NCBI GenBank assembly: GCA_943359705.1
Contig: CALRIB010000002.1
Span: forward strand, 1-33,090
Reading direction: 5' to 3'
DNA length: 33,090 bases
Source: Candidatus Nomurabacteria bacterium
Lineage (GTDB): Bacteria > Patescibacteriota > Minisyncoccia > Phycocordibacterales > UBA2100
Shown here: piece by piece, positions 1 through 26,260 of the stretch
How the letters are laid out: every line of letters begins with the position of its first letter
Numbering within the stretch: the stretch's first letter is position 1
Position numbers and translations under genes: made by a program
The notes under the pieces: model-generated
Seen by the model: only the letters and a program-made list of their open reading frames with translations
Database searches by the model: none
Told to the model about the DNA's origin: nothing

Positions 1-386
1 ACGGCCATTCATTTGTCGGCAGATTCGGGCGCTACTTCGGTATTAACGATGAAACGGTCTCGAAGGCCAAGCGGGTATTTCACCTCTACCACGACTGGAT
101 AATTTTTATATCCAAACTCACCGCAGGTTTCGGTTTTGCGCCGGCAATCTTTTTTACCGCCGGCCTCTCCCATGTCCCCTTCCGCCGTTACATGGTGCTG
201 AATGTCGCGGGACAAATCGTGTGGACGGGCGGACTCTTGGCTGTCGGATACTTCCTCGGACACCTTTACTCGCAGATAGGTAGCACCATCGAAAAGGTTT
301 TGAGCATCGGATTCATTCTTTTCGTACTCGTCGCACTTTTTGCTTTCGCGCGCTTTATGCGCGGCCGGCTTGAGCGCGTGCAATAG
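1..386 (+). CDS. DedA/SNARE-associated family membrane protein, C-terminal part (5' end outside window)
   Basis: Frame 3 is open from the window edge. Translation ...FVGRFGRYFGINDETVSKAKRVFHLYHDWIIFISKLTAGFGFAPAIFFTAGLSHVPFRRYMVLNVAGQIVWTGGLLAVGYFLGHLY... has the DedA C-terminal pattern. Stop at 384-386. Confidence 0.7.
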   Translation, partial: GHSFVGRFGRYFGINDETVSKAKRVFHLYHDWIIFISKLTAGFGFAPAIFFTAGLSHVPFRRYMVLNVAGQIVWTGGLLAVGYFLGHLYSQIGSTIEKVLSIGFILFVLVALFAFARFMRGRLERVQ

Positions 387-1554
387 TGTCGGCGTAGACA
401 CGCTCCCACACAGCCGCCACCGCCTCCGGCGAAAATTGTGAACCGAACCGGTAGGCGCCTTCGCCGAGTTGTTCGCGCAGTTCACTATCTTGAAGCAGCG
501 TGGTCATCTTCTGCGCGAAGTCTGCACTGTCGAGCGAGCGTGCGCGAAAACCCGCAGTCTCCGGCGTGTACTCATGGAGCGAACGCCAATCGGCACTCAC
601 GGCCGGCAAGCCACATATAAAGGCCTGCAGAAGCACCATGCTTTGCGTTTCCGATGTGCTCGCGATAGAAAATACCTCCGAGGCCGCGTATGCCTCCGCG
701 AGTGCAGCCTGGCTGAGCGTGCCGAGGAAGCGAACACTTTTCTCAATGCCAAGCTCGGTGACGAGTGCCCGCAATCGCGCCTCGTCTCGTCCGTGCCCCG
801 CGAGCGCAAGCATCGCATTCGGAATTTTCGCGCGCACCTGCCCTATCGCACGCAAAAGCACATCGATATTTTTTTCCCTGCCGAGACGGCCGGCGTAGAT
901 GACGGTCGAATCGGAAAATCCGAATTTCTTTTTTAGTGCATCGCGTTCCTCGCGTGTGCGCTTTTGAAAAATAGTCGTGTCTATCGGATTGGAAACGGGT
1001 TCGTGCGGCGCCTTGAGTCCGTACTGCGCCATCTCATCGAGCACCGAATGTGAAGGACCGGTCACAAAATCGCATCGGTTGTAATACCAGATTACTGCTT
1101 TCAACGTAAGGCGGCCGAGCAACTCCGCCGCAAACGGCGCATAGACCATAAATTCCCGCACGGCAGAATGATTGGTGCCGACCATCGGGATGCGGAGTTT
1201 GCGCGAAGCGCGCAGTGCCTCGATACCGAGCCCAAAAAATGTTTGCGTATGGATGATGTCCGGCTTAAATTCCCGTAAAAGCCGCCAGCGGGTGAACGTC
1301 GGCAGCACCAAACGCGACTGCAGATTGGAGCCCTTCACCAAAAGCGACGGCACGCGCGTGATGCGCACATTCTTGCCGAGGTCAATTTCTTTTTCCGGCA
1401 CATGCGAGAGCGCATAATCACTTGGCGAGGCACTTGGCACGACACAGAGCACCTGGTGTCCGCGACCCCCAAGTGTTTTGGCCAAAAGCTGCACCGAATC
1501 CTGTATCCCGCCGAGTTCAGGATAAAAACCGTCGGTAAAAATGGCGACGCGCAT
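355..1554 (-). CDS. Glycosyltransferase, GT4 (group 1) family
   Basis: 399 aa. N-terminus MRVAIFTDGFYPELGGIQDSV..., C-terminal half with ...GRLGREKNIDVLL... and E-x7-E-like region, typical of GT-B group 1 transferases. ATG at 1554 preceded by TGaTAGCAT box 6 nt upstream. Confidence 0.8.
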   Translation of the reverse strand: MRVAIFTDGFYPELGGIQDSVQLLAKTLGGRGHQVLCVVPSASPSDYALSHVPEKEIDLGKNVRITRVPSLLVKGSNLQSRLVLPTFTRWRLLREFKPDIIHTQTFFGLGIEALRASRKLRIPMVGTNHSAVREFMVYAPFAAELLGRLTLKAVIWYYNRCDFVTGPSHSVLDEMAQYGLKAPHEPVSNPIDTTIFQKRTREERDALKKKFGFSDSTVIYAGRLGREKNIDVLLRAIGQVRAKIPNAMLALAGHGRDEARLRALVTELGIEKSVRFLGTLSQAALAEAYAASEVFSIASTSETQSMVLLQAFICGLPAVSADWRSLHEYTPETAGFRARSLDSADFAQKMTTLLQDSELREQLGEGAYRFGSQFSPEAVAAVWERVYADTIARAQAGRA

Positions 1555-2390: not shown

Positions 2391-2752
2391 GCGTGGCCAA
2401 GAAAATGATCGAGGGAAGCGACCATGCGACGGATTGCGATGAAGACGTACGCCCACAAGAACGGCAACCAGAGCGGCATCACTCCAAAAAAAGACGTGCG
2501 CTCGAATTTCTCGACACCGGTGGAGACGAACAGGTATTCAGAAATGCAGAGCATCACAAATCCGAATGCCATAAAAATGAGGTCTTTTTTGTTCTGGCCT
2601 GCTGCGAGCGCGGCGAGAATGAAAAGTGTGTAAATCGCGGTCAGTATGAAATCATTTTGTATGAGGGGAATGAGCCCGATCATGACGAGGACGGGAAGTG
2701 CATTCGCGACGAACCGCGTAAATAACCCTATTTGAGCAATGATACGCGGCAT
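2387..2752 (-). CDS. Small polytopic membrane protein, unknown function
   Basis: About 4 hydrophobic helices. Track start 2758 is GTG; ATG at 2752 has TATACT (2760-2765) 7 nt upstream. Translationally coupled to the hydrolase gene. Confidence 0.55.
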   Translation of the reverse strand: MPRIIAQIGLFTRFVANALPVLVMIGLIPLIQNDFILTAIYTLFILAALAAGQNKKDLIFMAFGFVMLCISEYLFVSTGVEKFERTSFFGVMPLWLPFLWAYVFIAIRRMVASLDHFLGHA

Positions 2753-2772
2753 TCGCACAAGTATATATCTTC

Positions 2773-2937
2773 TGGGAGAACCGGGAATCGGTCAGGAATA
2801 ATTATTTCGCCGCCGCGAAATAATTTTCACGACCCTGGCTCGGCATTTTTCGTACTCGAAAAATATGCCTGCGCCTTTCGATTCCCTCACCATAGGTGCG
2901 AAGGCACCTATGGTGCGTCCGCCTTCACTTCGTTCAG
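2773..2937 (-). repeat. tRNA-His trailer element, distal unit (unit 1)
   Basis: Colinear with unit 2. Shares the 86-bp identical block (2869-2954 = 3068-3153), a 26-nt hairpin (2800-2825), the 14-mer ACGACCCTGGCTCG (2829-2842), a second hairpin (2842-2869) and a 12-bp hairpin (2888-2915). Ends CTGACC + degenerate tRNA-His 3' end (2773-2789, 10/17). Confidence 0.7.
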
Positions 2938-3136
2938 GGCGGCCGTCGGGAATCTCCCTCGCCTCTCGGTTCGCCGCCGCGAGGAATCGGTCACAGATAT
3001 CCCATCCGCCGCCGCGGATGGGATTCCGCGACCCCGGCTCGCGGTTTCGGCCGCTGCCGAAACATCGCTGCGCCTTTCGATTCCCTCACCATAGGTGCGA
3101 AGGCACCTATGGTGCGTCCGCCTTCACTTCGTTCAG
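2938..3136 (-). repeat. tRNA-His trailer element, proximal unit (unit 2), ending in a perfect orphan copy of the tRNA-His 3' end
   Basis: Starts right after tRNA-His 3' end (3137). Contains a 12-bp hairpin (3087-3114), hairpin 3044-3063, 14-mer GCGACCCCGGCTCG (3028-3041) and a 26-nt hairpin (2999-3024). Then GTGACC + degenerate tRNA 3' end (2972-2988, 12/17), followed by a perfect 17-nt GATTCCCGACGGCCGCC copy at 2938-2954. Confidence 0.75.
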
Positions 3137-3209
3137 GGCGGCCGTCGGGAATCGAACCCGAATTGAGAGCTCCACAAGCTCCAGTGTGAACCGTTACACC
3201 ACGGTCGCC
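3137..3209 (-). tRNA. tRNA-His (anticodon GUG)
   Basis: Hand-folded cloverleaf on minus strand: G-1 plus GCGACCG acceptor (one A4:C69 mismatch), D arm GTGT/ACAC, anticodon stem GGAGC/GCTCT with loop TTGTGGA, T arm TCGGG-TTCGATT-CCCGA. No encoded CCA. Confidence 0.85.
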
Positions 3210-3251
3210 ATACGAACAATCGCTTTATAGCAGATTTGGAGAGAGAACGCG

Positions 3252-3287
3252 ATAAAACGCAGCGCCGCCCCGAAGGGGCGGCGCTGC
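3252..3287 (-). terminator. Rho-independent terminator after the DUF4383-like gene
   Basis: Perfect 13-bp GC-rich stem GCAGCGCCGCCCC-gaa-GGGGCGGCGCTGC (3259-3287), followed on the minus strand by GTTTTAT. Confidence 0.7.
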
Positions 3288-3305
3288 AAAACACGAACGG
3301 AAATA

Positions 3306-3689
3306 CTACATCGCACCCTGCATTGCCATTCCGTTCCCCTCCTTCATGCCGAAGCCGGCATAGAGAGCGACGACCGCGATCGCGAGGTGAAGGACGTTGT
3401 CGGCCATGTTGACCATGATGAGGCCGAGCACCGAGTCGCCCTGCACGAATCCGAGCACCGTGACGAGTCCGTAGACAACGCCAAAAACCTGAAAGTAAAG
3501 GCGCGTCGGAAACATCCCGTACACCGCGGCGAGTGCCGCAAGACCCGAGAGAAGGTGTATGACGTTGTGCAGACCGTCGACCTCAAAGAGACCGAGAAGC
3601 ATGCCGTTGCTTGTGAGACCCGGTATGAATCCGGCAATACCCACGACCACGAACACGATTCCGAAAATCCAACCTAATTTGTTAACCAT
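3306..3689 (-). CDS. DUF4383-like small membrane protein
   Basis: 127 aa, 4 TM. MVNKLGWIFGIVFVVVGIAGFIPGL...GLHNVIHLLSG...DNVLHLAIAV pattern recalled from DUF4383 family proteins. Confidence 0.6.
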   Translation of the reverse strand: MVNKLGWIFGIVFVVVGIAGFIPGLTSNGMLLGLFEVDGLHNVIHLLSGLAALAAVYGMFPTRLYFQVFGVVYGLVTVLGFVQGDSVLGLIMVNMADNVLHLAIAVVALYAGFGMKEGNGMAMQGAM

Positions 3690-6020: not shown

Positions 6021-6698
6021 TCACAGCTTCTCCTCCACTGTACCCAAAATCTTCTTTAATTTCAATCTCTTCCGAGAAAGACACACGACGCTCTTCGAAT
6101 AGTACATTTTTCTTAAAACGACTAGAGAATCTTTTTTAGCGTACTTTAGCTGGTAGAGCACGCGATTGGCACTTCCCGATGTCACGTGTCCAGATACGCC
6201 TGTCCGTTTTCTTATTTCACTTCGAAGCCAATCAACAAACGATTTGCTAGCAGAAGCGAATATCGTATAGAACATAAAACTTGAACGCCAGCGCGGATCC
6301 CAATAGGCATGAGAACATCCATCACCGTCGTACACTCCCCTAAGAAAATCCCAAAAGTACGCGGGAGGAATTTTCAAAGGACCGATTGTCTTGGACTTTC
6401 TCGGTGTAAGACCTATTGAAAGCAGGAAATCATAAAAGACTACATTTTTGAATTGTACGCGTAGGTATTCTTTTCCATTGCTCCCCTTCTTTTTCGTGAT
6501 ATTGAAATCTACTCCGATACATATACGAAAATTGTCGAGCTGTTCGCGATCTGCAGACGTAAGATCGATGAGCGAGAATGGGGGTGAAAGGCAGCCATCG
6601 GTAGCGAGTAGCCCAATCGCGTAAGCGAGTTTTGCTGACCAGGTTTGATCTATTTTTCTTCTTGCATTAAATCCCGGTTTCGGACCCCGCTTCCCCAT
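6021..6698 (-). CDS. LAGLIDADG-family homing endonuclease (two-motif, single chain)
   Basis: Two motifs, LAYAIGLLATDGCLS and FLRGVYDGDGCSHA. Visibly lower GC than its neighbours. Stop is 9 nt upstream of the tRNA-Leu 5' end. TGaTATCAT box (6705-6713) 6 nt upstream of the ATG. Confidence 0.85.
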   Translation of the reverse strand: MGKRGPKPGFNARRKIDQTWSAKLAYAIGLLATDGCLSPPFSLIDLTSADREQLDNFRICIGVDFNITKKKGSNGKEYLRVQFKNVVFYDFLLSIGLTPRKSKTIGPLKIPPAYFWDFLRGVYDGDGCSHAYWDPRWRSSFMFYTIFASASKSFVDWLRSEIRKRTGVSGHVTSGSANRVLYQLKYAKKDSLVVLRKMYYSKSVVCLSRKRLKLKKILGTVEEKL

Positions 6699-7372: not shown

Positions 7373-7506
7373 GGTGCGCGGTGAGGGATTTGGTCACGCG
7401 TCGTTTTCTGTTGAAAACGCGCGCGACCCCGCCTCGGCCCGGCCTCCGGCTTTCAAATCCTGCCCCCAACGCAAAAGCACCCGCGGGGGGTGCTTTGTGC
7501 ATCGGG
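7373..7506 (-). repeat. tRNA-Val trailer element ending in an orphan copy of the tRNA-Val 3' end
   Basis: 20-nt direct repeat GGTGCGCGGTGAGGGATTTG at 7373-7392 and 7505-7524 (the latter is the real tRNA-Val 3' end plus 2 nt). Between them: terminator-like hairpin (7474-7496), 14-mer GCGACCCCGCCTCG (7423-7436), 27-nt hairpin (7397-7423), then GTGACC (7392-7397). Confidence 0.7.
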
Positions 7507-7578
7507 TGCGCGGTGAGGGATTTGAACCCCCGACCCTCCCCGTGTAAAGGGGTTGCTCTACCACTGAGCTAACCGCGC
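7507..7578 (-). tRNA. tRNA-Val (anticodon UAC)
   Basis: Acceptor GCGCGGT/ACCGCGC, D arm GCTC-AGTGGTA-GAGC, anticodon loop TTTACAC, T arm GGGGG-TTCAAAT-CCCTC. Confidence 0.85.
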
Positions 7579-7624
7579 ATCTATTTACTGCGCTACGTGT
7601 GCGCAACGGCTCTTCCGAGCCGGG

Positions 7625-14123: not shown

Positions 14124-14603
14124 TCAATCATTACCTTTCAACCAACTCTTTTCAAGGTGGTGCTCTTCGTAATGACAATTCGGGCAAACGAGCTCGAGAT
14201 TACTTGAATCGTTGTTCTTCCGGTTTCTATCTTTGTGATGCACATGCAATATTTCTTTCTTGTTGTAGCCGCATCGCTCGCAAGAGCCTCCCCGCTCCTC
14301 CAGAAGCCTGATTTTCATCGCCCGCTCGGCGACAACCTTATCACGCGGCCGACCGATCTTGTAGTGAATTCCTGTGCGATATTTATTCGAGCACGCACGG
14401 CTACAAGTTATTCTGTGCAAACTTGCGAGAATCGGCTTCGCACAAACGACACACGGTGACTCGTTCCGACTTGAGATACCGTAACATGCCTGGCCACAAT
14501 AGGCTCTGCCACTAGTAGCAGCGAGCTGAACAGGTCGACGATAAATTTGCTTACCGCAAATCGTGCACTTTGTATTTGGATTTCTTTTATACCGCTCCGC
14601 CAT
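14124..14603 (-). CDS. HNH endonuclease with N-terminal Cys-rich (zinc-finger-like) region
   Basis: Start set at ATG 14603 (MAERYKRNPNTKCTICGK...). ...CERCGYNKKEILHVHHKDRNRKNNDSSNLELVCPNCHYEEH is the HNH core. Low GC. TGgTATACT (14610-14618) 6 nt upstream. Stop 4 nt before the tRNA-Ser 5' end. The track extension to 14924 overlaps the HD gene. Confidence 0.8.
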   Translation of the reverse strand: MAERYKRNPNTKCTICGKQIYRRPVQLAATSGRAYCGQACYGISSRNESPCVVCAKPILASLHRITCSRACSNKYRTGIHYKIGRPRDKVVAERAMKIRLLEERGGSCERCGYNKKEILHVHHKDRNRKNNDSSNLELVCPNCHYEEHHLEKSWLKGND

Positions 14604-14641
14604 TCGGCCAGTATACCAGTTTTCCTTTACTCCAAGCGGGG

Positions 14642-15283
14642 CTATTCGCTCTCGCTGCCCGCAGCATCTATCCACTCGACTCCGGCTTTCTCGAACTGCG
14701 TCTTTAAATCTTTCTTTACTGCATCGAGCAGGTCCTTGAGCTCCGGAAAAGGTCGCGTTGCTTCGTCGAATGCGGCGACGGCGGCATCGGCGTACGACGC
14801 GTGGAATTCTTTGGGTATGTACATCTCCACGCCGCCTTCGGCGATATGCAGAAATCCCTCGATCTTGTCGAGCGCACGCACGAACCGCGCTTCTACCGTC
14901 CGCTGGTCGGTGTATTCGCGCCACAAATCGTAGACGGATTTTCCAAATGCTATGTCCCCCGTCATCTCACGCATCGCCTCGTCTTCTTTGGCCGTTTTGC
15001 GGACGGTCATTTTTTTCCCGGCGAGCATTTGCTCGTATGCGTCGATATCCCCGGTCTTCGCCTCCCCGAGGTCATGGACGAGGGCGAGCGAAAGCGTGCG
15101 ACCCATGTTGAGGCGCACCCTACACTCCGGGCCAATGATGAGCGCCATAAGCGCCAGGCGCCACGAATGCGCGGCGACCGTGTTTTGCTTGCCCCGTAGC
15201 GACGCGCCGTAGCGCTCGATGCTCTCGAGCTCCTTCGTGCGTCGCAGAAATATGAGGATATCTTCCATTTCCCGTCGTTTCAT
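14642..15283 (-). CDS. HD-domain phosphohydrolase, YfbR-like 5'-deoxynucleotidase
   Basis: ...NTVAAHSWRLALMALII...LALVHDLGEAKTGDI... (H...HD...D metal ligands in YfbR-like spacing). Confidence 0.7.
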   Translation of the reverse strand: MKRREMEDILIFLRRTKELESIERYGASLRGKQNTVAAHSWRLALMALIIGPECRVRLNMGRTLSLALVHDLGEAKTGDIDAYEQMLAGKKMTVRKTAKEDEAMREMTGDIAFGKSVYDLWREYTDQRTVEARFVRALDKIEGFLHIAEGGVEMYIPKEFHASYADAAVAAFDEATRPFPELKDLLDAVKKDLKTQFEKAGVEWIDAAGSESE

Positions 15284-16700: not shown

Positions 16701-17120
16701 ATGAATACCCGCGAAACCCGAGGTTTTACCCTCATTGAATTACTCGTCGTCATAGCAATTATCGGCCTTCTCGCCTCAATCGTCATCGCCTCGCTCTCTA
16801 CGGTGCAGGCCAAAGCACGTGACGCCAGGCGTATGGAAGACGTCAACTCGCTTCAGAAGGCGCTCACTATCTACGTCTCCAATCACGGCACCTATCCTAT
16901 CTATACGGCGACAACGACCGTCACCGCCACGACGACCGTGGGCGCCGACCTCATCGCAGACCAGGCTATCCCGACGTCACCGAAAGACCCGACCGACCCG
17001 GTGCGCGTGTACAGTTACCACTCGAACTCCGACGGTTCAAGCTATACGCTCAACTTCTGCCTGGAGACTGACAGCATCCGGAGCTACGCGGCGGGCTGCA
17101 ACAACAACATCACTCCGTAA
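16701..17120 (+). CDS. Type IV pilin / prepilin with N-terminal methylation motif
   Basis: MNTRETRG|[24 protein letters not shown] class III signal. TTGGCG-16-TACAAT (TACAAT 16687-16692) 8 nt upstream of ATG 16701. Alternative starts at 16674 and 16644. Confidence 0.85.
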
Positions 17121-17145
17121 GTTCGTATATCGGGAGGTCTCCAAA

Positions 17146-17176
17146 GGCCGCCGCGCAGAAGCGCGGCGGCCTTTTT
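17146..17176 (+). terminator. Rho-independent terminator after the pilin gene
   Basis: GGCCGCCGCGC-agaa-GCGCGGCGGCC followed by TTTTT. Confidence 0.8.
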
Positions 17177-17214
17177 CGCGAGCTGCGCGTAAATGCGTAG
17201 TACAATATATTTTC

Positions 17215-17685
17215 ATGCCTTCCTCCTCAAACGGAATACGCTGGACGGCGCACGAACACGAACACATCGAGCGCGGGAGCGACTGGTTTTGGGCACTCGG
17301 TATCGCGGCCGCCGCGCTTGCCGCCATCAGTTTCCTTTTCGGCAACGCGCTTTTCGGCGTGCTCATCATCGTCGCTGCCGTAACGCTCGGCATCTTCGCC
17401 AAAAAACCGCCTCCGCTTATGGAATTCGAGATCTCCGACCGCGGCATCCGCACGGGCGAGGTAATGCATCGCTACGAGGAAATCATTTCCTTTTGGGTAG
17501 AGGAGCACGATGCAAATCCCCCCATTCTTCTTATCGACACCACAAAATGGCTCTCACCCAATCTCATTATCGAGCTCGAACACGTCGACGCGAAAGAGGT
17601 GCGCGCATTTCTGGCCGAGCGAGTAGAAGAAGTGCCGATGAAAGAACCGGTCGCGCACAAAATTCTCGAATTCTTCGGACTCTGA
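17215..17685 (+). CDS. Membrane protein with two TM helices and a bacterial PH-like C-terminal domain (hypothetical)
   Basis: Start set at ATG 17215 (MPSSSNGIRWTAHEHEHIERGSDWFWALGIAAAALAAISFLF...) with TACAAT (17201-17206) 8 nt upstream. The track N-terminal extension (from 16819) is an R/P/T-rich read-through overlapping the pilin gene. Confidence 0.55.
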   Translation: MPSSSNGIRWTAHEHEHIERGSDWFWALGIAAAALAAISFLFGNALFGVLIIVAAVTLGIFAKKPPPLMEFEISDRGIRTGEVMHRYEEIISFWVEEHDANPPILLIDTTKWLSPNLIIELEHVDAKEVRAFLAERVEEVPMKEPVAHKILEFFGL

Positions 17686-17688
17686 AAC

Positions 17689-18087
17689 AGCCACTAGCCA
17701 CTAGTTCTTAGCCACTAGCGAGCCGATGAGTTTATTTAACATACGCATGACCTCATCTATGAGCGTTTTCGCTCTTTTCAACTGATGCGGGTCGGCAAAT
17801 TTTAGGTTTTCAGCGATTTCAAAATGTGTCTCTAACTCCGCCCCCGAACCGAACGCAATCCTCAAGAATTGAATATTTTCCTGCCGATGCTTGCGCGCGA
17901 ATCCTTCCGCAATATTCGCGGGAATTGACACCGCAGCCCTCCGTGTTTGGCTTGTCAGACCAAACATTTCTGAGCGTGGGTATCGTTCTGTGAGTTTATA
18001 AACTTCGCTGACTAATTCGATGCCGCGTTGCCAAACAACAAGTTCTCGGTACGACTGCATTTTTCTAGTCGCTAGTGGCTAGTGGCT
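17689..18087. mobile_element. Cassette: four-helix-bundle gene bracketed by perfect 16-bp inverted repeats
   Basis: AGCCACTAGCCACTAG at 17689-17704 and its exact reverse complement CTAGTGGCTAGTGGCT at 18072-18087. Extra partial copies at 17710-17723 and 18065-18075. Interior is lower in GC than the flanks. Confidence 0.45.
17701..18060 (-). CDS. Four-helix-bundle protein (23S rRNA intervening-sequence protein family)
   Basis: MQSYRELVVWQRGIELVSEVYKLTERYPRSEMFGLTSQTRRAAVSIPANIAEGFARKHRQENIQFLRIAFGSGAELETH... is the family signature. Confidence 0.85.
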   Translation of the reverse strand: MQSYRELVVWQRGIELVSEVYKLTERYPRSEMFGLTSQTRRAAVSIPANIAEGFARKHRQENIQFLRIAFGSGAELETHFEIAENLKFADPHQLKRAKTLIDEVMRMLNKLIGSLVAKN

Positions 18088-20152
18088 AAATCACTGTAAC
18101 CGTGGTGCTTGCGTCGCGGGTACCTCCGCCGACTGTGACACAGTGGAGCACGAACGCATACGAGGTGGTTGCCGTTTTCGTCAGAGGCGGCGTGGTCGCA
18201 GTGCCGTTGACGTTGGTGTTGCCCGCATTTTGCGTGGTGAACGCCGGAATGTCCGGGCTCGAAATCACGCACGATTGCATGCCGGAGGTAATCCAGCCGA
18301 GCGCCGATTGGCCGCCCGATGCGACATCCTTCGGATTCGCGATGAGGACGATGGAGGGCTTGCCGACCTGGACCGAACACTGCGCAGTGGCCACTGTGCC
18401 CGCACTGTTACAGGTGAGGCCGTATGAAGCGCTGTTGCTGCCTGCGGCGGGATTGGTCGTAGTTGCGAGCGCCGAACCGCTTTGCGCGCCGTTCGTTTGA
18501 AAGCCCGTGCCCGTGCTGGTGCCTGCAGAGCACGAGTACGCGATCGCGATAGACATGCCGACGTCGGCCACTTGCGGATTGCATGATATTTGCGCGGTGA
18601 GAGAGCCGTTGGTGCCGGTACCCGTGCCGCTCGGCACGCACTGCCAGCTCCCCACGCACGCGCCGTTGTACGTGGGCTTCCATGTACCGTTGGCACATCC
18701 GGCCGGGTCAGGTTGTGCGGGTGCCGTCGGGCACTGCTGCGCGGTCGCACATGCGTTGCCCGCAGGCGCGCAGCCGGTGGGGCACGTCTGCATCGGCGTA
18801 TCCACGCACTGATTGTTGCGCGAGTAGAGCGTGTTGTTGGAACAGAGGAGCTGTCCACCCGGGCATGTGCCCGGCGCTTGCGGCGTCTGATTCCCCGCCG
18901 CCGGTGAAGCAGACCCTCCTGGCGAGCCACCCATCAGACCCTTCAACATCGATGCGATGTCCGGCATTCCACTCTTGTTCTGATTATTATTGTTGTTATT
19001 GTCCTGCGGATCCTGCTGGAACGTAGTCTGCTGCCGCTTTGTCGGATCCGGCTGCGCAGTGGTCGTCGTTTTGGTCGGATCCGGCTTGGGAGTGGTCGTC
19101 GTTTTGGTTGGATCAGGAGCCGGAGCTTTGGCGGGAGGTGTACATACCTGATTGGGGTCGCCGGCGGATGCGGTGCACGTAAACCCTTTTGCAGTCAGTT
19201 CATCTACGTTCGCGTCCCTGGCCGGATAACATCCAGTTTTGTCACAATTATATTTTGCCGCATCGACGCCTGCCATCGGATTCGCATTCGGCCCGGATTG
19301 TGCCGCTGCCAAAGCGTCATACCTATCTTGCGCCTCTTTTGCAGCGGCCTGCGCCTTTGCGGCGTCGGCCTGAGCTTGTGCTGCATTCGCGGCTGCGTTC
19401 GCACATCCCGGGCTCGATGTGTCGCCACCGAATGCACAGCTCGAAGCAATGTCGTCTAGCTTAGCGGCCGTTGATTGGGCAGTTGCGGCGGCCGTGGCAG
19501 CGTCAACAAGATTCTTTTTTGCTTCGGCCGTCAGCGCGTCATTAAGAACGCTACGCTCTGTCTCACCGAGTGAGCTCATGAGAGACTGTTGCTGATCCGA
19601 GGGTAGGGTTTTAAATACATCAGGGTTCGCCGCGGCGCTTTTTATACCGGCGATACCAGATACCGCGCCCGTGTCGAGGCATTTCTTATCATCGGGGGTG
19701 CAGTACTGTGTTTTGCACGTGCCTGCCGGGACATCGGCGCTAAGCTTCGAAACAACTTTTCCCGTACCGTCTTTTTGTATGTAAATTTTTGACGTCAACC
19801 CCACGCATATCGCGTCTTGCTCTCCGGTATAGAGAGCTGCGGTGCAGTTATCTTTCTGGACCGTATCTTGCCCTTTTGGCAGACCTGTTTCTTGCGGTGT
19901 GGTGCTTTTCTTTTGCGCTAGAGCCTGTTGCTTCAACGCAGTACATTTCTCTGCCATCTCTTTTTTTCGCGGATCCGCAGGGGGAACAGGGATCGTGTAT
20001 GTCGCCTCGTTGTATCTCGGAGCATCTGCAAGCTGCGATGCTGGTTGAACATTAAGGAATTCTGCAGCACCCGCAGCGCCGAGCATTGCCATTAGGACGA
20101 GGCTGGCAAGTATAGATGCGCCACGTTGACCCCGGTCGGCGGGTAAAGACAT
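18086..20152 (-). CDS. Large secreted/anchored Cys-rich protein with low-complexity linker and two C-terminal Ig-like repeats
   Basis: 688 aa. N-terminal hydrophobic anchor (ASILASLVLMAMLGAAGAA), many Cys, PDPTKTTTT repeats, N6 tract, Met/Lys motif MPDIASMLKGLMGG. C-terminal repeats with W-x-[ST]-x-G-x-x-SC pattern. TATCAT (20159-20164) 6 nt upstream of the ATG. Confidence 0.7.
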   Translation of the reverse strand: MSLPADRGQRGASILASLVLMAMLGAAGAAEFLNVQPASQLADAPRYNEATYTIPVPPADPRKKEMAEKCTALKQQALAQKKSTTPQETGLPKGQDTVQKDNCTAALYTGEQDAICVGLTSKIYIQKDGTGKVVSKLSADVPAGTCKTQYCTPDDKKCLDTGAVSGIAGIKSAAANPDVFKTLPSDQQQSLMSSLGETERSVLNDALTAEAKKNLVDAATAAATAQSTAAKLDDIASSCAFGGDTSSPGCANAAANAAQAQADAAKAQAAAKEAQDRYDALAAAQSGPNANPMAGVDAAKYNCDKTGCYPARDANVDELTAKGFTCTASAGDPNQVCTPPAKAPAPDPTKTTTTPKPDPTKTTTTAQPDPTKRQQTTFQQDPQDNNNNNNQNKSGMPDIASMLKGLMGGSPGGSASPAAGNQTPQAPGTCPGGQLLCSNNTLYSRNNQCVDTPMQTCPTGCAPAGNACATAQQCPTAPAQPDPAGCANGTWKPTYNGACVGSWQCVPSGTGTGTNGSLTAQISCNPQVADVGMSIAIAYSCSAGTSTGTGFQTNGAQSGSALATTTNPAAGSNSASYGLTCNSAGTVATAQCSVQVGKPSIVLIANPKDVASGGQSALGWITSGMQSCVISSPDIPAFTTQNAGNTNVNGTATTPPLTKTATTSYAFVLHCVTVGGGTRDASTTVTVI

Positions 20153-20352
20153 CGCTCAATGATACTCCCTTTATTGCGCTGAACGTCGGCTAAATGTGGA
20201 AAAAGCTGGCGAAACGAACGATGCGCTGCATTTGTCTGTGCCCTTCGCCAACTGGGAAACCCACGGTTTTCCCAATCCTTCCTCCACGGGAAACCGGCAG
20301 GTTTCCCGACCCCTTCCTCCGGCGAGGTCATCTCGCTCACTTCGTTCGCTTG

Positions 20353-24623: not shown

Positions 24624-24696
24624 CCGCCCATAGCTCAGTTGGTAGAGCAGCTCCCTTTTAAGGAGACGGTCGTAGGTTCGATTCCTACTGGGCGGA
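24624..24696 (+). tRNA. tRNA-Lys (anticodon UUU)
   Basis: Acceptor CCGCCCA/TGGGCGG (unusual C1:G72), D arm GCTC-AGTTGGTA-GAGC, anticodon stem GCTCC/GGAGA with loop CTTTTAA, T arm GTAGG-TTCGATT-CCTAC. Confidence 0.8.
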
Positions 24697-24834
24697 CACG
24701 AATGAAAAACAGCACCTGCGTGCTGTTTTTCTTTACGTGTCCGAGCCGGAGCCATGTTTCGTCAGCAGACGAAACGGGCGAGGCAGGGTCGTGGAATTTT
24801 GCGAGCGGCGGCGAGCAAAATATCCCTGACGACC
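24697..24834 (+). repeat. tRNA-Lys trailer element (same family as the His/Val elements)
   Basis: Same order as behind tRNA-His: long hairpin (24705-24730), 8-bp hairpin GTTTCGTC-agca-GACGAAAC (24756-24775), 14-mer CGAGGCAGGGTCGT (24779-24792, the reverse complement of ACGACCCTGCCTCG), 26-nt hairpin with GC-GGCG-GC apex (24796-24821), then CCCTGAC (24824-24830). Confidence 0.6.
24705..24735 (+). terminator. Rho-independent terminator after tRNA-Lys (also first hairpin of the trailer element)
   Basis: AAAAACAGCAC-ctgc-GTGCTGTTTTT followed by CTTT. Confidence 0.7.
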
Positions 24835-24841
24835 AACTAGA

Positions 24842-26200
24842 TTAAATCGTAAGGTCAACCGTCACCGAATCCGTCACATGTCTTCCGTCGGCGGTGAGGC
24901 AGGAGATGCTGAAGACGGTCGAACCGGTGAGCGGCACCGTGGAAGCACCGCCGGAGAGAGAGTTCTCATTGAAGCTTCCGTCAGGCGAAGTCTCTTTGCA
25001 CGAGACCACTCCCTGTGTGTTCCAAAATACCGATGTGCGTGAACCAAGCGGCACCGACGCGGGCACAGCCCAGATGTCGGCCTCCGGCTCAACGGTGGAC
25101 GCGGCGGGCTGTGCGGGAGCCGGCGCGGCTGATGTCGGCGTCTTTTGTTGCACGATAACAGTCTGCGTGACCGGCGCGCTCGGCGGGGCAGGTCTTCCTA
25201 CGTCATACCCGCGCCATGCGCAGAGGCTGTCGAAAAATGCCGGAGGAATGACGAAGGAAACGACCGAGCCCGCCCATGGGCGACCGTGGCAGAGATCAGC
25301 CACGAGACCGGTCGGCTGAGAAGTGCCCATCGTGTCGCCGCCGTAGAAGCCCGCTATTTCAGTATTGCCCGCGGTATCGCGTGCGTTCGCAAGCACTGTT
25401 GCGCCTGAATTGGTCATGACGATGTTGCCTTTCGTTCCCGACTGCATGTCGGTCGCGAGCCCGCCTACATTTTTGAGCGGCAGTGTGGTGACATTCTGAT
25501 TTGTATTGACGGTAGTTGAAGTGTCCCCAGTTCCGCCACTCGTGTCAGTCGTCGTATTGCTGAGTATCTGGTCACTCACATTCGCAGGAGTGCCGCCAAA
25601 CGCATCAGTCAGAGAACTGCCCGCACCGCTGTTGAGCGCATTCAAAAGTGCGTCGCTTGCGGTACTCGTCGGTGCCGTGAGAAGACTGTTGGAAATCGGC
25701 GGCACGTAATAGGCGCACGGGTCGGTAGAAGGCGTCGTGACCTGATAGTACGCTGTGCAGCCGCACTTCCCTGTCGCGTCGGCCACTCCGCCGCTCGGGC
25801 AAGTGCTTCCGGGTGGAGTCGTCGGGGGAGGAGTGGAGGGCGGGCTGTCCTTCGGCTTCAACATATCCATGATGCTTTTCATCATGTCCATGAAACCTTT
25901 CATATCGCCTATTCCGCCTTTTTCGGTTCCGGTTCCCTCGCATTTGTTCGCACTAGCGCAGATGCCGATAACCTTCCCTCCTGGTGGCGTATCGAAGCAA
26001 ACACCAGGCGGACAGTTGGCTGTGTTTTTCCCCCCCGTACAACCACCCTTTCCGTCGGGGATTTGATTGCACATGCACTGCGCAAACCATGGATTGCACA
26101 TAGCGTTGGCTTTCGCGCTCATCGAGGCCTGAGCTGCGAACGGAGCAAGTAGTAGCAGCACGAGAGTAGATGCAAAAGCGAGGCGAGCACGATGCGTCAT
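24842..26200 (-). CDS. Secreted Cys-rich protein, paralogous in architecture to 18086-20152, one C-terminal Ig-like domain
   Basis: Start set at ATG 26200 (MTHRARLAFASTLVLLLLAPFAAQA signal peptide; TAGCAT 7 nt upstream). Track start 26248 is GTG. Cys-rich N-domain, Met/Lys motif MKGFMDMMKSIMDMLKPK, Pro/Thr linker. C-terminal ...SVFWNTQGVVSCKETSPDG...STVFSISCLTADGRHVTDSVTVDLTI. Confidence 0.65.
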   Translation of the reverse strand: MTHRARLAFASTLVLLLLAPFAAQASMSAKANAMCNPWFAQCMCNQIPDGKGGCTGGKNTANCPPGVCFDTPPGGKVIGICASANKCEGTGTEKGGIGDMKGFMDMMKSIMDMLKPKDSPPSTPPPTTPPGSTCPSGGVADATGKCGCTAYYQVTTPSTDPCAYYVPPISNSLLTAPTSTASDALLNALNSGAGSSLTDAFGGTPANVSDQILSNTTTDTSGGTGDTSTTVNTNQNVTTLPLKNVGGLATDMQSGTKGNIVMTNSGATVLANARDTAGNTEIAGFYGGDTMGTSQPTGLVADLCHGRPWAGSVVSFVIPPAFFDSLCAWRGYDVGRPAPPSAPVTQTVIVQQKTPTSAAPAPAQPAASTVEPEADIWAVPASVPLGSRTSVFWNTQGVVSCKETSPDGSFNENSLSGGASTVPLTGSTVFSISCLTADGRHVTDSVTVDLTI

Positions 26201-26260
26201 GATGACAATGCTACCGCACACGAGTGATTCCGCAATGCGGTTTTTCACAATTCCTGTGTA

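Follow-up and report, generated by a model that had tools for sequence, protein, structure and literature searches.

What are the two structured units that stand in tandem behind the tRNA-His gene of a Candidatus Nomurabacteria bacterium, each closed by a copy of the tRNA 3' end? The locus belongs to a stretch of 33,090 nt on contig CALRIB010000002.1, which is termed the window. A preliminary description offered two readings: a non-autonomous mini-element may have inserted serially and site-specifically into the tRNA T-loop, or the units may form a selected, transcribed, structured trailer RNA. In what follows, R1 denotes the covariance model of the element; an earlier strict sequence pattern had been derived from the window.

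Architecture of the tRNA-His locus

Each unit is composed of a segment P1 and a conserved scaffold of about 85 nt. P1 begins with a 5' strand that repeats the target from the insertion point, continues with a hairpin whose loop often reads CUGC, and ends with a 3' strand that forms the antisense guide. The scaffold comprises, in this order, P2 (GSC:GSC), the P3 hairpin, the linker CGAGSCRGGGUCG, the P4 hairpin and a final UGAC. The parts of the locus are as follows.

3136–3208, minus strand: tRNA-His (GTG) gene (ARAGORN; Rfam tRNA model, 50.3 bits)
2990–3154, minus strand: unit A, tRNA-proximal, 165 nt (R1 match 2987–3089, 99.7 bits)
3137–3154, minus strand: unit A, P1 5' strand, equal to the tRNA 3' part
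3123–3136, minus strand: unit A, loop
3115–3122, minus strand: unit A, antisense copy of the acceptor strand, GGCGGACG
3087–3114, minus strand: unit A, hairpin hp1
3076–3085, minus strand: unit A, guide GGGAATCGAA
2990–3074, minus strand: unit A, scaffold P2/P3/P4 with final GUGAC
2955–2989, minus strand: right junction of unit A (read from the sequence)
2791–2954, minus strand: unit B, distal (R1 match 2788–2890, 99.9 bits)
2938–2954, minus strand: unit B, orphan tRNA-His 3' end
2888–2915, minus strand: unit B, hairpin hp1
2877–2886, minus strand: unit B, guide GGGAATCGAA
2791–2875, minus strand: unit B, scaffold with final CUGAC
2773–2790, minus strand: unit B, downstream repeat, CGATTCCCGGTTCTCCCA (read from the sequence)

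The insertion point in the T-loop of tRNA-His lies between T55 (3155) and C56 (3154), and an element-free version of the same gene is present at locus L203. The two units follow each other with a period of exactly 199 nt. As the preliminary description had reported, positions 2869–2954 and 3068–3153 form an 86-nt block of 100% identity; the repeat family around this block reaches 94 nt at 97% in the alignment. The block includes the last 17 nt of tRNA-His, GATTCCCGACGGCCGCC (3137–3153), whose perfect second copy is the orphan 3' end. The degenerate copies of the tRNA end that had been described were also found, at 2972–2988 (12/17) after GTGACC and at 2773–2789 after CTGACC, with TGACCGATTCC located at 2784–2794 and 2983–2993. 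The distal degenerate copies are not recognisable as old 3' ends of tRNA-His.

The right junction of unit A opens with a 7-nt target repeat, CGATTCC. This is followed by a 28-nt filler that contains a small hairpin and the motif CGCGGCGGCGA, and the full copy of the tRNA 3' part resumes beyond it. Similar fillers of 14–16 nt occur within the downstream repeat at three other loci (L177, L200, L172). In unit B, the first 9 nt of the downstream repeat, CGATTCCCG, match the target from C56; the automatic repeat scan caught a spurious upstream match here and is not applicable to this unit.

Beyond the 86-nt block the two units are colinear yet diverged, with a scaffold identity of 56–67% depending on the alignment and the columns compared. 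The hairpins 2800–2825 and 2999–3024, as well as 2842–2869 and 3044–3063, keep their pairing with different sequences, and the compensatory divergence pointed out earlier is thus real. The 451-nt region as a whole has a folding z of −10, which is not a chance value. Each unit further includes the 3' part of the tRNA in antisense, a component that the earlier account had missed. The A4:C69 mismatch of tRNA-His was considered as an insertion scar, a sign that the 3' end had been replaced by the element, and dismissed, since element-free relatives carry the same mismatch.

Separate insertions of one gene-less family

The same element stands behind tRNA-Lys and tRNA-Val of the window, where it had previously been overlooked, so that R1 finds four copies in the window (tRNA-His twice, tRNA-Lys, tRNA-Val). 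The conserved linker GAGCCRGGGTCG likewise occurs four times against 0.48 expected, always behind a tRNA.

24695–24830, plus strand: tRNA-Lys copy (R1 match 24730–24833, 95.7 bits)
7393–7524, minus strand: tRNA-Val copy, a shortened variant (R1 match 7390–7465, 54.1 bits, E = 7e-11)
7373–7392, minus strand: perfect 20-nt repeat of the tRNA-Val 3' part, CAAATCCCTCACCGCGCACC, identical to 7505–7524

The tRNA-Lys copy sits at the 3' end of its gene (24624–24697). A long hairpin with a terminator-like stem makes up its P1, its guide is CGTGTCCG and its downstream repeat is GAC at 24831–24833; it is 97% identical to a Kaiserbacteria copy at L124. The tRNA-Val copy sits in the T-loop of its gene (7504–7579) and has a short P3, no GCGGCGGC apex and the guide AGGATTTGAA; the 20-nt repeat begins directly after GUGAC. 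The trailer of tRNA-Arg(gcg), at 20236–20351, is alike in architecture, but it has a different scaffold and no R1 match and was not retained as a copy.

The strict pattern yielded 73 loci, and those in CPR and Elusimicrobia lie 63–113 nt behind a tRNA or tmRNA gene on the same strand. About 15 matches in actinobacteria and proteobacteria have neither a nearby tRNA nor R1 confirmation and were set aside as chance. With R1, 103 matches were obtained overall; the search for further copies proposed at the outset returned about 100 in other genomes, of CPR and Elusimicrobia, besides the four of the window. At the level of genome and locus, 51 of 83 matches lie at most 120 nt behind a tRNA or tmRNA gene, with 14 tRNA types represented, and 13 of the 83 are in tandem. 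A few copies occupy the 3' ends of protein genes, which the element duplicates in L165 and L128. Perfect repeats of 17–26 nt flank copies at His, Val, Gly, Leu, Ser, Arg and tmRNA loci, perfect repeats of 19–26 nt run beyond the tRNA end, and the orientation is always that of the target gene. In IMG/VR the strict pattern had no match, and a loose pattern for viral contigs (GGGTCG..CGGCGGCG..TGAC) gave 120 chance matches, none with the full motif.

The units of 130–200 nt contain no ORF. No integrase was found in the window, as stated before: among the 30 large ORFs scanned there is no integrase, reverse transcriptase, transposase or other recombinase domain, and specifically no Y1 transposase in these 33 kb of the genome. 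In an all-against-all comparison of ORFs around about 50 loci only housekeeping clusters recur; this comparison, which looked only for recurrent neighbours, showed no transposase near the copies in about 1.1 Mb. No Rfam family matches the element and no description of it was found in the full-text literature. The family was found in many CPR/Patescibacteria lineages and in Elusimicrobia; it is apparently widespread there and previously undescribed.

Covariation supports the structure on the larger alignment as well. In a hand-made alignment compensatory changes were seen at 19 of 28 pairs, and among the 103 R1 matches double changes occur at 27 of the 28, with 95.6% of cells paired, against 70.7% in shuffles and 28–51% in slid controls. 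The R1 pair counts come from an alignment fitted to the model and therefore lean towards the structure; an independent MAFFT alignment gives the same picture. P4 carries an invariant unpaired, bulged A, 8 nt before the terminal ..UGAC, in all 56 aligned copies, and UGAC pairs with GUCG at its foot in every copy. Since G.U pairs far outnumber A.C (180 vs 23), the structure is read on the tRNA-sense strand.

A strongly conserved sense-strand structure, always downstream of and co-oriented with stable-RNA genes, is also what would be expected of a conserved, non-mobile trailer RNA that is inherited vertically, often lost, and acts in 3' processing, termination or tRNA-end mimicry; guide, scaffold and downstream repeat might even close as a helix like a tRNA acceptor. 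Such a trailer is nevertheless very improbable. Copies lie in the 3' ends of protein genes, which they duplicate, unit number differs between strains, syntenic relatives are empty, scaffold lineages are mixed at single loci and near-identical across lineages, arrays are heterologous, and the perfect 19–26-nt repeats reach past the tRNA end. Of the trailer RNA proposed earlier, conservation of a structure in the tRNA sense stands, but this structure belongs to the scaffold of the element and not to a trailer specific to tRNA-His.

The empty sites that insertion predicts do exist. The element is absent from more than 100 of 120 related tRNA-His loci; L203, L250 and L271 are syntenic and empty, with an identical tRNA-His 3' end in L203. 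In strain L197 of the same species the locus is shorter by exactly 199 nt, with unit B present as such and unit A lacking. Scaffold B shares 85% identity with the copy that L141, another genome, has behind tRNA-Lys, and 56% with scaffold A; both scaffolds are nearer to copies of other genomes than to one another. Near-identical scaffolds occur in different lineages, different scaffold lineages occur inside a single locus, and the arrays of L135 alternate two different elements, the distal of which still has a guide that matches the tRNA end. Insertion leaves the tRNA intact and restores the target, since the remainder of the gene comes with the element; further elements can therefore insert beside the tRNA, which gives arrays. 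Serial insertion of a non-autonomous mini-element is thus borne out by the very comparisons suggested for it, and the two tRNA-His units are separate insertions of one small, gene-less structured family of about 130–200 nt. That the copies belong together as a mobile family is hardly in doubt. Unit B probably came first and unit A second, which probably makes unit A the younger of the two.

If the tRNA-His trailer had undergone local tandem duplication or unequal crossing-over, which is the usual assumption for the 178-bp repeats of E. coli tyrT, the 86-nt block of identity and the period of exactly 199 nt would be accounted for, and recombination between the blocks could turn a two-unit strain into a one-unit strain. 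Decayed attL/attR scars of integrase-borne islands would be another source, tRNA T-loops being classical integrase targets. Both are largely refuted and have a very small probability. The variable halves are only 56–67% identical and each is nearer to copies elsewhere, which also overturns the lineage-specific duplication named at the outset as the refuting case; the same scaffold is found at 14 tRNA types, tmRNA and protein genes, which one integrase could not serve; and the units of 130–200 bp have no integrase. The insertion model has its own difficulty here: without a further process, for instance gene conversion or the copying of the resident P1, it does not explain 100% identity over 86 nt in otherwise diverged units.

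Integrases reportedly use the T-loop and the 3' end as sublocations of tRNA and tmRNA genes, as Williams is said to have described in 2002. The CPR element shares with integrase-borne elements these two sublocations, tmRNA as a further target, the direct repeats of the target 3' part on either side, the carried 3' gene part with regeneration of the gene, the displaced copy at the far end and the tandem arrays. It differs by the absence of an integrase, by its size of 130–200 bp and, from elements bound to one site, by a single scaffold at no fewer than 14 tRNA types, tmRNA and protein genes with an antisense segment that tracks the target.

The guide and the insertion point

In 36 of 37 copies the downstream repeat begins exactly 2 nt inside the stretch complementary to the guide (offset +2). 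Of 54 copies, 63% have an exact, anchored complement of 8 nt or more, compared with 7.6% when guides are swapped between copies, and the junction dinucleotide changes together with the guide. The target consensus is GGNN|CR; among 29 unique sites, G occupies position −3 in 28, C position 0 in 26 and a purine position +1 in all 29. Within tRNA genes insertion occurs at universally conserved tRNA motifs, either between positions 55 and 56 of the T-loop or around positions 71–74 of the acceptor end; tmRNA genes and a few protein-gene 3' ends are targeted besides. The length of the target repeat varies from 3 nt to 52 nt or more, with about 52 nt in L165. GAGAA stands in place of a T-loop complement in about six copies, which break the 2-nt rule. 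In all likelihood, the insertion point is set by guide pairing.

Two other origins of the repeat were considered and rejected. Arrest of a reverse transcriptase at m1A58 would not place the boundary as observed, as A58 itself belongs to the repeat and the same rule is obeyed in protein genes. A target duplication as long as the guide pairing conflicts with the repeats of 3–5 nt at tRNA 3' ends, where P1 pairing is far longer.

A guide of this kind could also serve a protein. In this alternative, the scaffold would be the guide RNA of a recombinase or nuclease encoded elsewhere, like an IS110 bridge RNA or a TnpB omega RNA, and the protein would find the tRNA gene through the antisense segment or the flank after UGAC. 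The variable segment indeed adjoins a conserved scaffold, a constant GG two nucleotides upstream of the junction resembles a target-adjacent motif, and the scaffold, like an omega RNA, is placed at the right end and directed into the flank. We consider both parts of this proposal improbable: known bridge and omega RNAs adjoin their protein gene, while about 100 copies have no adjacent partner gene. In bridge RNAs, internal loops and not a hairpin strand bear the guides, and Rfam has no match. With neither a recurrent neighbour gene nor an Rfam match, the element also departs from IS110 bridge and TnpB/IscB omega systems as a class.

Possible mechanisms and known systems

The best overall explanation is, by a cautious preference, a family of guide-bearing insertion elements for which an intron-like route at the RNA level is favoured. 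Along this route the element would be co-transcribed with the tRNA, both junctions would be aligned by the guide, and cutting and joining would follow at N2|N3 and GAC|N3. New targets would be entered by the reverse reaction and then copied into DNA by an enzyme supplied in trans. The one guide would have two alternative partners, the element's own 5' end or the flank beyond UGAC, which would explain why these two have to be the same sequence. Chemistry at the RNA level, as judged from the anatomy of the element, is a tentative proposal. Somewhat more doubtful is that the scaffold of about 85 nt could be a miniature catalytic or host-assisted RNA whose one programmable guide aligns both junctions; the self-excision from, and self-insertion into, tRNA, other transcripts or genes that this would entail is doubtful to the same degree.

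Several features speak against an RNA route. The upstream side of the junction is held by 2 bp only, which is weak for a splicing-type reaction, and no known self-splicing core is nearly as small as the scaffold. Copies at tRNA 3' ends have an apparent intrinsic terminator in P1, upstream of the scaffold, and transcription of the scaffold would be limited by this stem. No ribozyme or intron model of Rfam matches the scaffold: the hammerhead, HDV-like, twister, pistol, hatchet and hairpin ribozyme models have no match up to E = 10 in 2650–3320; Intron_gpII has none up to E = 10, the 5' end of the element being a copy of the target and not GUGYG; and Intron_gpI (P3–P9 core) has none either, with a scaffold of only about 85 nt. 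A hammerhead-like order of motifs (GAAA, stem, GUC, stem, CUGA..) was discarded, as the core does not fit, copies at tRNA 3' ends lack the middle stem and Rfam gives no match; by reading, GUGAC/CUGACC takes the place of CUGANGA, and GGGGUC has no matching stem III before it. The insertion model in general is burdened by the need of a T-loop element to gain the matching 3' part and antisense of each new tRNA.

Among introns, the pairing of one guide with the upstream flank plus the element 5' end, or alternatively with the downstream flank, recalls P1 and P10 of group I, which one internal guide sequence forms, and the 5' junction likewise lies inside a helix. The bulged A 8 nt before a 3' end reading ..AC recalls domain VI of group II, as a resemblance only; ORF-less group II introns and euglenoid group III introns are further comparators. 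Unlike introns, the CPR element has a far smaller core, an exon side of 2 bp only, no GUGYG and no terminal G, it duplicates exon sequence and it leaves a functional tRNA without splicing.

The alternative at the DNA level is a remnant of an IS200/IS605-type single-strand transposon, similar to PATE or REP, with P1 and P4 as end hairpins. Its cleavage sites would be read through base pairs at the feet of these hairpins, N1N2 pairing with the end of the guide and UGAC with GUCG, and a Y1/HUH transposase from elsewhere in the genome would act on the lagging-strand template. In IS608, a guide pairs with the cleavage site. The two have in common small size, a strand-specific and hairpin-rich structure, frequent location at gene 3' ends, cleavage sites that pair with internal nucleotides and mobilisation in trans; the absence of genes, the UGAC–GUCG pairing at the foot of P4 in every copy and the constant orientation along the target gene, in keeping with tRNA genes being co-oriented with replication, are likewise in line with it. 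We nonetheless regard the transposon remnant, the reading of cleavage sites by hairpin feet and the supply of a Y1/HUH enzyme each as unlikely. IS200/IS605 elements leave no target repeat and recognise one fixed site of 4–5 nt, whereas here the repeat measures 3 to at least 52 nt and the long recognised sequence varies with the guide. The guide is 3' of the left hairpin and not 5' as in IS608, P3 and P4 are dissimilar in contrast to the near-identical end hairpins of IS608, the IS605-orfB and HEARO families of Rfam do not match, and the recurrent-neighbour comparison over about 1.1 Mb near copies brought up no transposase.

CTX-phi and other Xer-dependent integrating elements (IMEX) as well as integron attC sites resemble the CPR element in that a folded single strand recreates a duplex which mimics the target, the site is regenerated by integration and tandem arrays arise. 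Their site, dif or attI, is fixed and served by a dedicated recombinase pair, while the mimicked sequence of the CPR element differs with each target. A MITE would have terminal inverted repeats of fixed sequence and a target duplication of constant length; here the ends are a copy of the target and UGAC, without inverted repeats, and the repeat length is variable.

If the favoured explanation of a guide-bearing insertion family is correct, many tRNA and tmRNA genes and some protein genes across a large part of the bacterial tree bear an unrecognised mobile element, whose target is apparently specified by a short antisense segment next to a compact, conserved scaffold according to the rule GGNN|CR with an offset of 2. 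It would constitute a small, apparently retargetable insertion system without a dedicated gene inside, and would account for orphan tRNA 3' ends, long tRNA trailers and breaks in CPR assemblies. Even with a trans-acting transposase, a guide-defined junction and a carried rest of the target gene would still be unusual. Should the scaffold be catalytic, it would represent a new class of intron-like, self-homing elements without a protein of their own. An RNA of roughly 100 nt is open to in vitro assays of cleavage, ligation or splicing.

The insertion family would also provide a testable explanation for the 178-bp repeats of E. coli tyrT/tyrV (rtT/RttR RNA, RF00391), which a catalytic scaffold would make a distant analogue or relative. 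To our knowledge, the mechanism by which these repeats originated was never settled, and we know of them at a single enterobacterial locus, with no dispersed family. Homology was not detected: RF00391 has no match to the window at its gathering threshold or up to E = 10, and R1 reaches at most 5.6 bits at the E. coli tyrV trailer, so that only the architecture is alike. The junction, in E. coli between positions 57 and 58, differs from that of the CPR element and the 2-nt rule fails there. Both consist of tandem structured units behind a tRNA, and in both a copy of the tRNA 3' end, beginning in the T-loop (AATCCTTCCCCCACCACCA in E. coli), closes every unit. The E. coli unit contains a stretch antisense to this end, GGGGAAGGAT, followed by GAGAA, and GAGAA is also found in the CPR subclass formed by L122, L143, L184 and L174.

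The tRNA-His trailer and related copies in the window

The units in the tRNA-His trailer belong to a dispersed, conserved and gene-less family, whose internal antisense stretch tracks the insertion point. The finding is larger than the preliminary description had seen: it concerns a whole element family. Each element comprises P1 (a copy of the target's 3′ part, a hairpin and an antisense "guide") and a scaffold of about 85 nt (P2, P3, P4) ending in UGAC. Matches to the covariance model of this scaffold (R1) are listed with tRNA-His, unit A being proximal to the tRNA and unit B distal.

Features of the window
3136-3208, minus strand: tRNA-His
2987-3089, minus strand: His unit A, R1 match of 99.7 bits
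2788-2890, minus strand: His unit B, R1 match of 99.9 bits
24730-24833: Lys copy, R1 match of 95.7 bits
7390-7465: Val copy, R1 match of 54.1 bits

The trailer had been described as holding an 86-nt identity, an orphan tRNA 3′ end and re-paired hairpins, and all three were verified. The identity joins 2869-2954 to 3068-3153 and includes the last 17 nt of tRNA-His, which places the orphan 3′ end at 2938-2954. Outside this block the units are colinear, and both hairpins differ in sequence with pairing retained. The units end in GTGACC or CTGACC followed by a stretch beginning GATTCC, and the region folds far better than its shuffles (z = -10). The tRNA-His acceptor stem carries an A4:C69 mismatch (5′ GCGACCG vs 3′ CGGCCGC), which is common to several related species (loci L203, L204, L250, L271 and L289), element present or not. 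Fillers of 14-35 nt, many of them small hairpins, split some downstream repeats a few nt after their start, as at 2955-2989 and in loci L177, L200 and L172; those of L177 and L200 are alike (AAGGCGTAATCGCCGT and AAAGCGTACTCGCTGG).

The conserved linker GAGCCRGGGTCG is also present, one mismatch apart, in the trailers of tRNA-Val and tRNA-Lys (four window matches vs 0.48 expected). The tRNA-Val trailer ends in GTGAC, after which 20 nt repeat the tRNA perfectly from C56 to the 3′ end; the tRNA-Lys trailer, with the same pair of hairpins, has CTGAC/GAC as its end (here and below, the slash marks the junction). The tRNA-Arg(gcg) trailer (20236-20351, minus strand) shows a like architecture on another scaffold, with no R1 match. 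It holds, in order, an antisense of the tRNA end (CCTCGCCGG), GGGGTCG, two similar hairpins within an internal duplication of about 35 nt, and an imperfect copy of the tRNA's 3′ end (GGCGAAGGGCAC); directly after the tRNA, GAACGAAGTGA is common to this trailer and the His trailer. ORFs with an HNH endonuclease domain (14124-14924, minus strand) and a weak LAGLIDADG match (6021-6698, minus strand) lie directly upstream of tRNA-Ser and tRNA-Leu, respectively, both of which are without the element. Three large ORFs of 688, 468 and 288 aa (18086-20152 and 24842-26248, minus strand; 16819-17685, plus strand) have no Pfam match.

Scaffold structure and distribution

For 56 aligned copies, RNAalifold gives P2 (GSC:GSC), the P3 hairpin, the linker CGAGSCRGGGUCG and the P4 hairpin, the latter closed by GUCG:UGAC and with two invariant features, the GCGGCGGCG apex and a bulged A 8 nt before the end. 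Compensatory changes were found in 19 of the 28 pairs. In the alignment of all 103 R1 matches from the fetched loci, double changes occur in 27 of 28 pairs and 95.6% of the cells are paired, vs 70.7% in shuffles and 28-51% with slid partners. The excess of G.U over A.C pairs (180 vs 23) points to the tRNA-sense strand as the one that carries the structure.

A strict pattern derived from three window copies matched 73 loci in species-representative genomes. In Saccharibacteria, Kaiser-, Pacei-, Nomura-, Giovannoni-, Morani- and Taylorbacteria, other Patescibacteria and Elusimicrobia, the matches follow a tRNA or tmRNA of the same strand at a distance of 63-113 nt. Matches in GC-rich actinobacteria and proteobacteria were rejected, having no nearby tRNA and no confirmation by R1. 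Among 83 genome-locus R1 matches, 51 lie at most 120 nt behind a tRNA (14 types) or tmRNA, 13 in tandem behind another copy and 6 at locus edges. No Rfam family matches the element, no copy was found in IMG/VR and no description in the full-text literature; the family appears undescribed in the sources searched.

Some arrangements are peculiar. A Saccharibacteria contig (L135, 3000-6900, plus strand) holds six or seven copies within 8 kb, behind three tRNAs. In Elusimicrobia (L159 7210-7303, minus; L164 5770-5863, plus; L153 7295-7388, minus), an extra copy in opposite orientation abuts the end of a tRNA-Arg(ccg) array, so that elements converge. In locus L149 (about 330-730, plus strand), the only case seen with an incomplete upstream tRNA copy, the 5′ part of a pseudo-tRNA-Glu, up to the T-stem, runs straight into an element without the first copy of the tRNA 3′ part, followed by CGATTCCCC and an intact second tRNA-Glu.

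Guide, insertion site and mobility

A target-antisense stretch stands just 5′ of P2 in every unit. In the T-loop copies it reads GGGAATCGAA against target TTCGATTCCC for tRNA-His and AGGATTTGAA for tRNA-Val; an antisense copy of the acceptor strand is usual farther upstream, and the hairpin between both often has a CUGC loop. In 3′-end copies a short stretch (e.g., GTGCG vs CGCAC) lies at the base of a long hairpin with perfect pairing. The 12 nt before P2 were compared with the upstream target in 54 copies: 63% have an exact anchored complement of 8 nt or more, vs 7.6% when the guides are exchanged between copies. The repeat after UGAC begins exactly 2 nt inside the guide-complementary stretch in 36 of the 37 copies with a repeat of at least 3 nt, for example, at TT/CGATT, the T-loop site that separates positions 55 and 56, and at CG/CAC of acceptor ends; the consensus of 29 unique sites is GGNN/CR. 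Both tRNA insertion sites are universally conserved motifs. The junction position is fixed relative to the guide, and the element brings the remainder of the target gene, which is regenerated. A few protein-gene 3′ ends also carry the element under the same guide rule, including one with about 52 nt of the gene end duplicated (L165) and an efp-like gene (L128).

A scan for the body of the window tRNA-His returned 120 related loci, about ten with an R1 match behind the tRNA and more than 100 empty.

State of selected tRNA-His loci
L203: syntenic, upstream DUF4383 gene of 71% DNA identity, identical tRNA 3′ end; empty
L250 and L271: syntenic with the window; empty
L289: syntenic with the window; divergent element, downstream repeat that of another tRNA
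L194: same species as the window; two units
L197: same species, another sample; unit B only, exactly 199 nt shorter

Between serial insertion into the T-loop and a structured trailer RNA, the two readings first offered, insertion is supported by the dispersed copies, the empty syntenic sites, the one-unit strain L197 and scaffolds closer to copies in other genomes. Scaffold B shares 85% identity with a copy that follows tRNA-Lys in a genome of 32% GC (L141), vs only 56% with scaffold A, and the Lys copy of the window reaches 97% identity with one from Kaiserbacteria (L124). In the L135 arrays, copies of two distinct elements follow one another as X-Y-X; the distal element is no longer beside the tRNA end, yet its guide still matches that end. 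New insertions therefore go in beside the tRNA, and unit A is probably the younger of the two His units.

Known systems and possible routes

Integrase-borne islands, IS200/IS605 derivatives, group I, II and III introns, bridge and omega RNAs, and Xer-dependent or attC hairpin sites each have some features in common with the element, but each fails in a defining one. Among described cases, the E. coli tyrT/tyrV trailer comes closest: the tRNA-Tyr 3′ end, from the T-loop on, closes every one of its 178-nt units. Each tyrV/rttR unit (L318, E. coli K-12 NC_000913.3 1286200-1287900; locus 480-1135, minus strand) carries GGGGAAGGAT, antisense to the tRNA-Tyr 3′ part, then GAGAA, the motif that also stands in place of the T-loop complement in one subclass of CPR elements (L122, L143, L184, L174, L180, L121). 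R1 has no match on this trailer and RF00391 none in the window, so the likeness is architectural only; the E. coli repeat may be an analogue of the family.

A single guide would pair with either of two partners, the 5′ end of the element itself or the flank beyond UGAC, which would then have to be identical in sequence; the internal guide of group I introns, with P1 and P10, is a parallel. We tentatively favor an RNA-level, intron-like route, which would suit the sense-strand structure with its G.U bias, the constant co-orientation with the target gene, the high expression of the targets and the bulged A 8 nt before the AC end. However, the upstream junction side is 2 bp only, the core is very small, the 3′-end copies have terminator-like stems upstream of the scaffold, and the GAGAA subclass breaks the guide rule. 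The acquisition of a new tRNA's 3′ part with its antisense, the 100% identity of the 86-nt block in two diverged units and the fillers would also be left unaccounted for. No protein family recurs near the copies, and the window ORFs scanned contain no domain of an integrase, a reverse transcriptase or a transposase. A somewhat less probable alternative is a route through single-strand DNA, with an HUH enzyme acting in trans; a role as guide RNA of an unlinked recombinase seems improbable.

The element is also a cause of assembly gaps: two same-species assemblies (L195, L196) have contig ends within the repeated trailer or immediately ahead of it.
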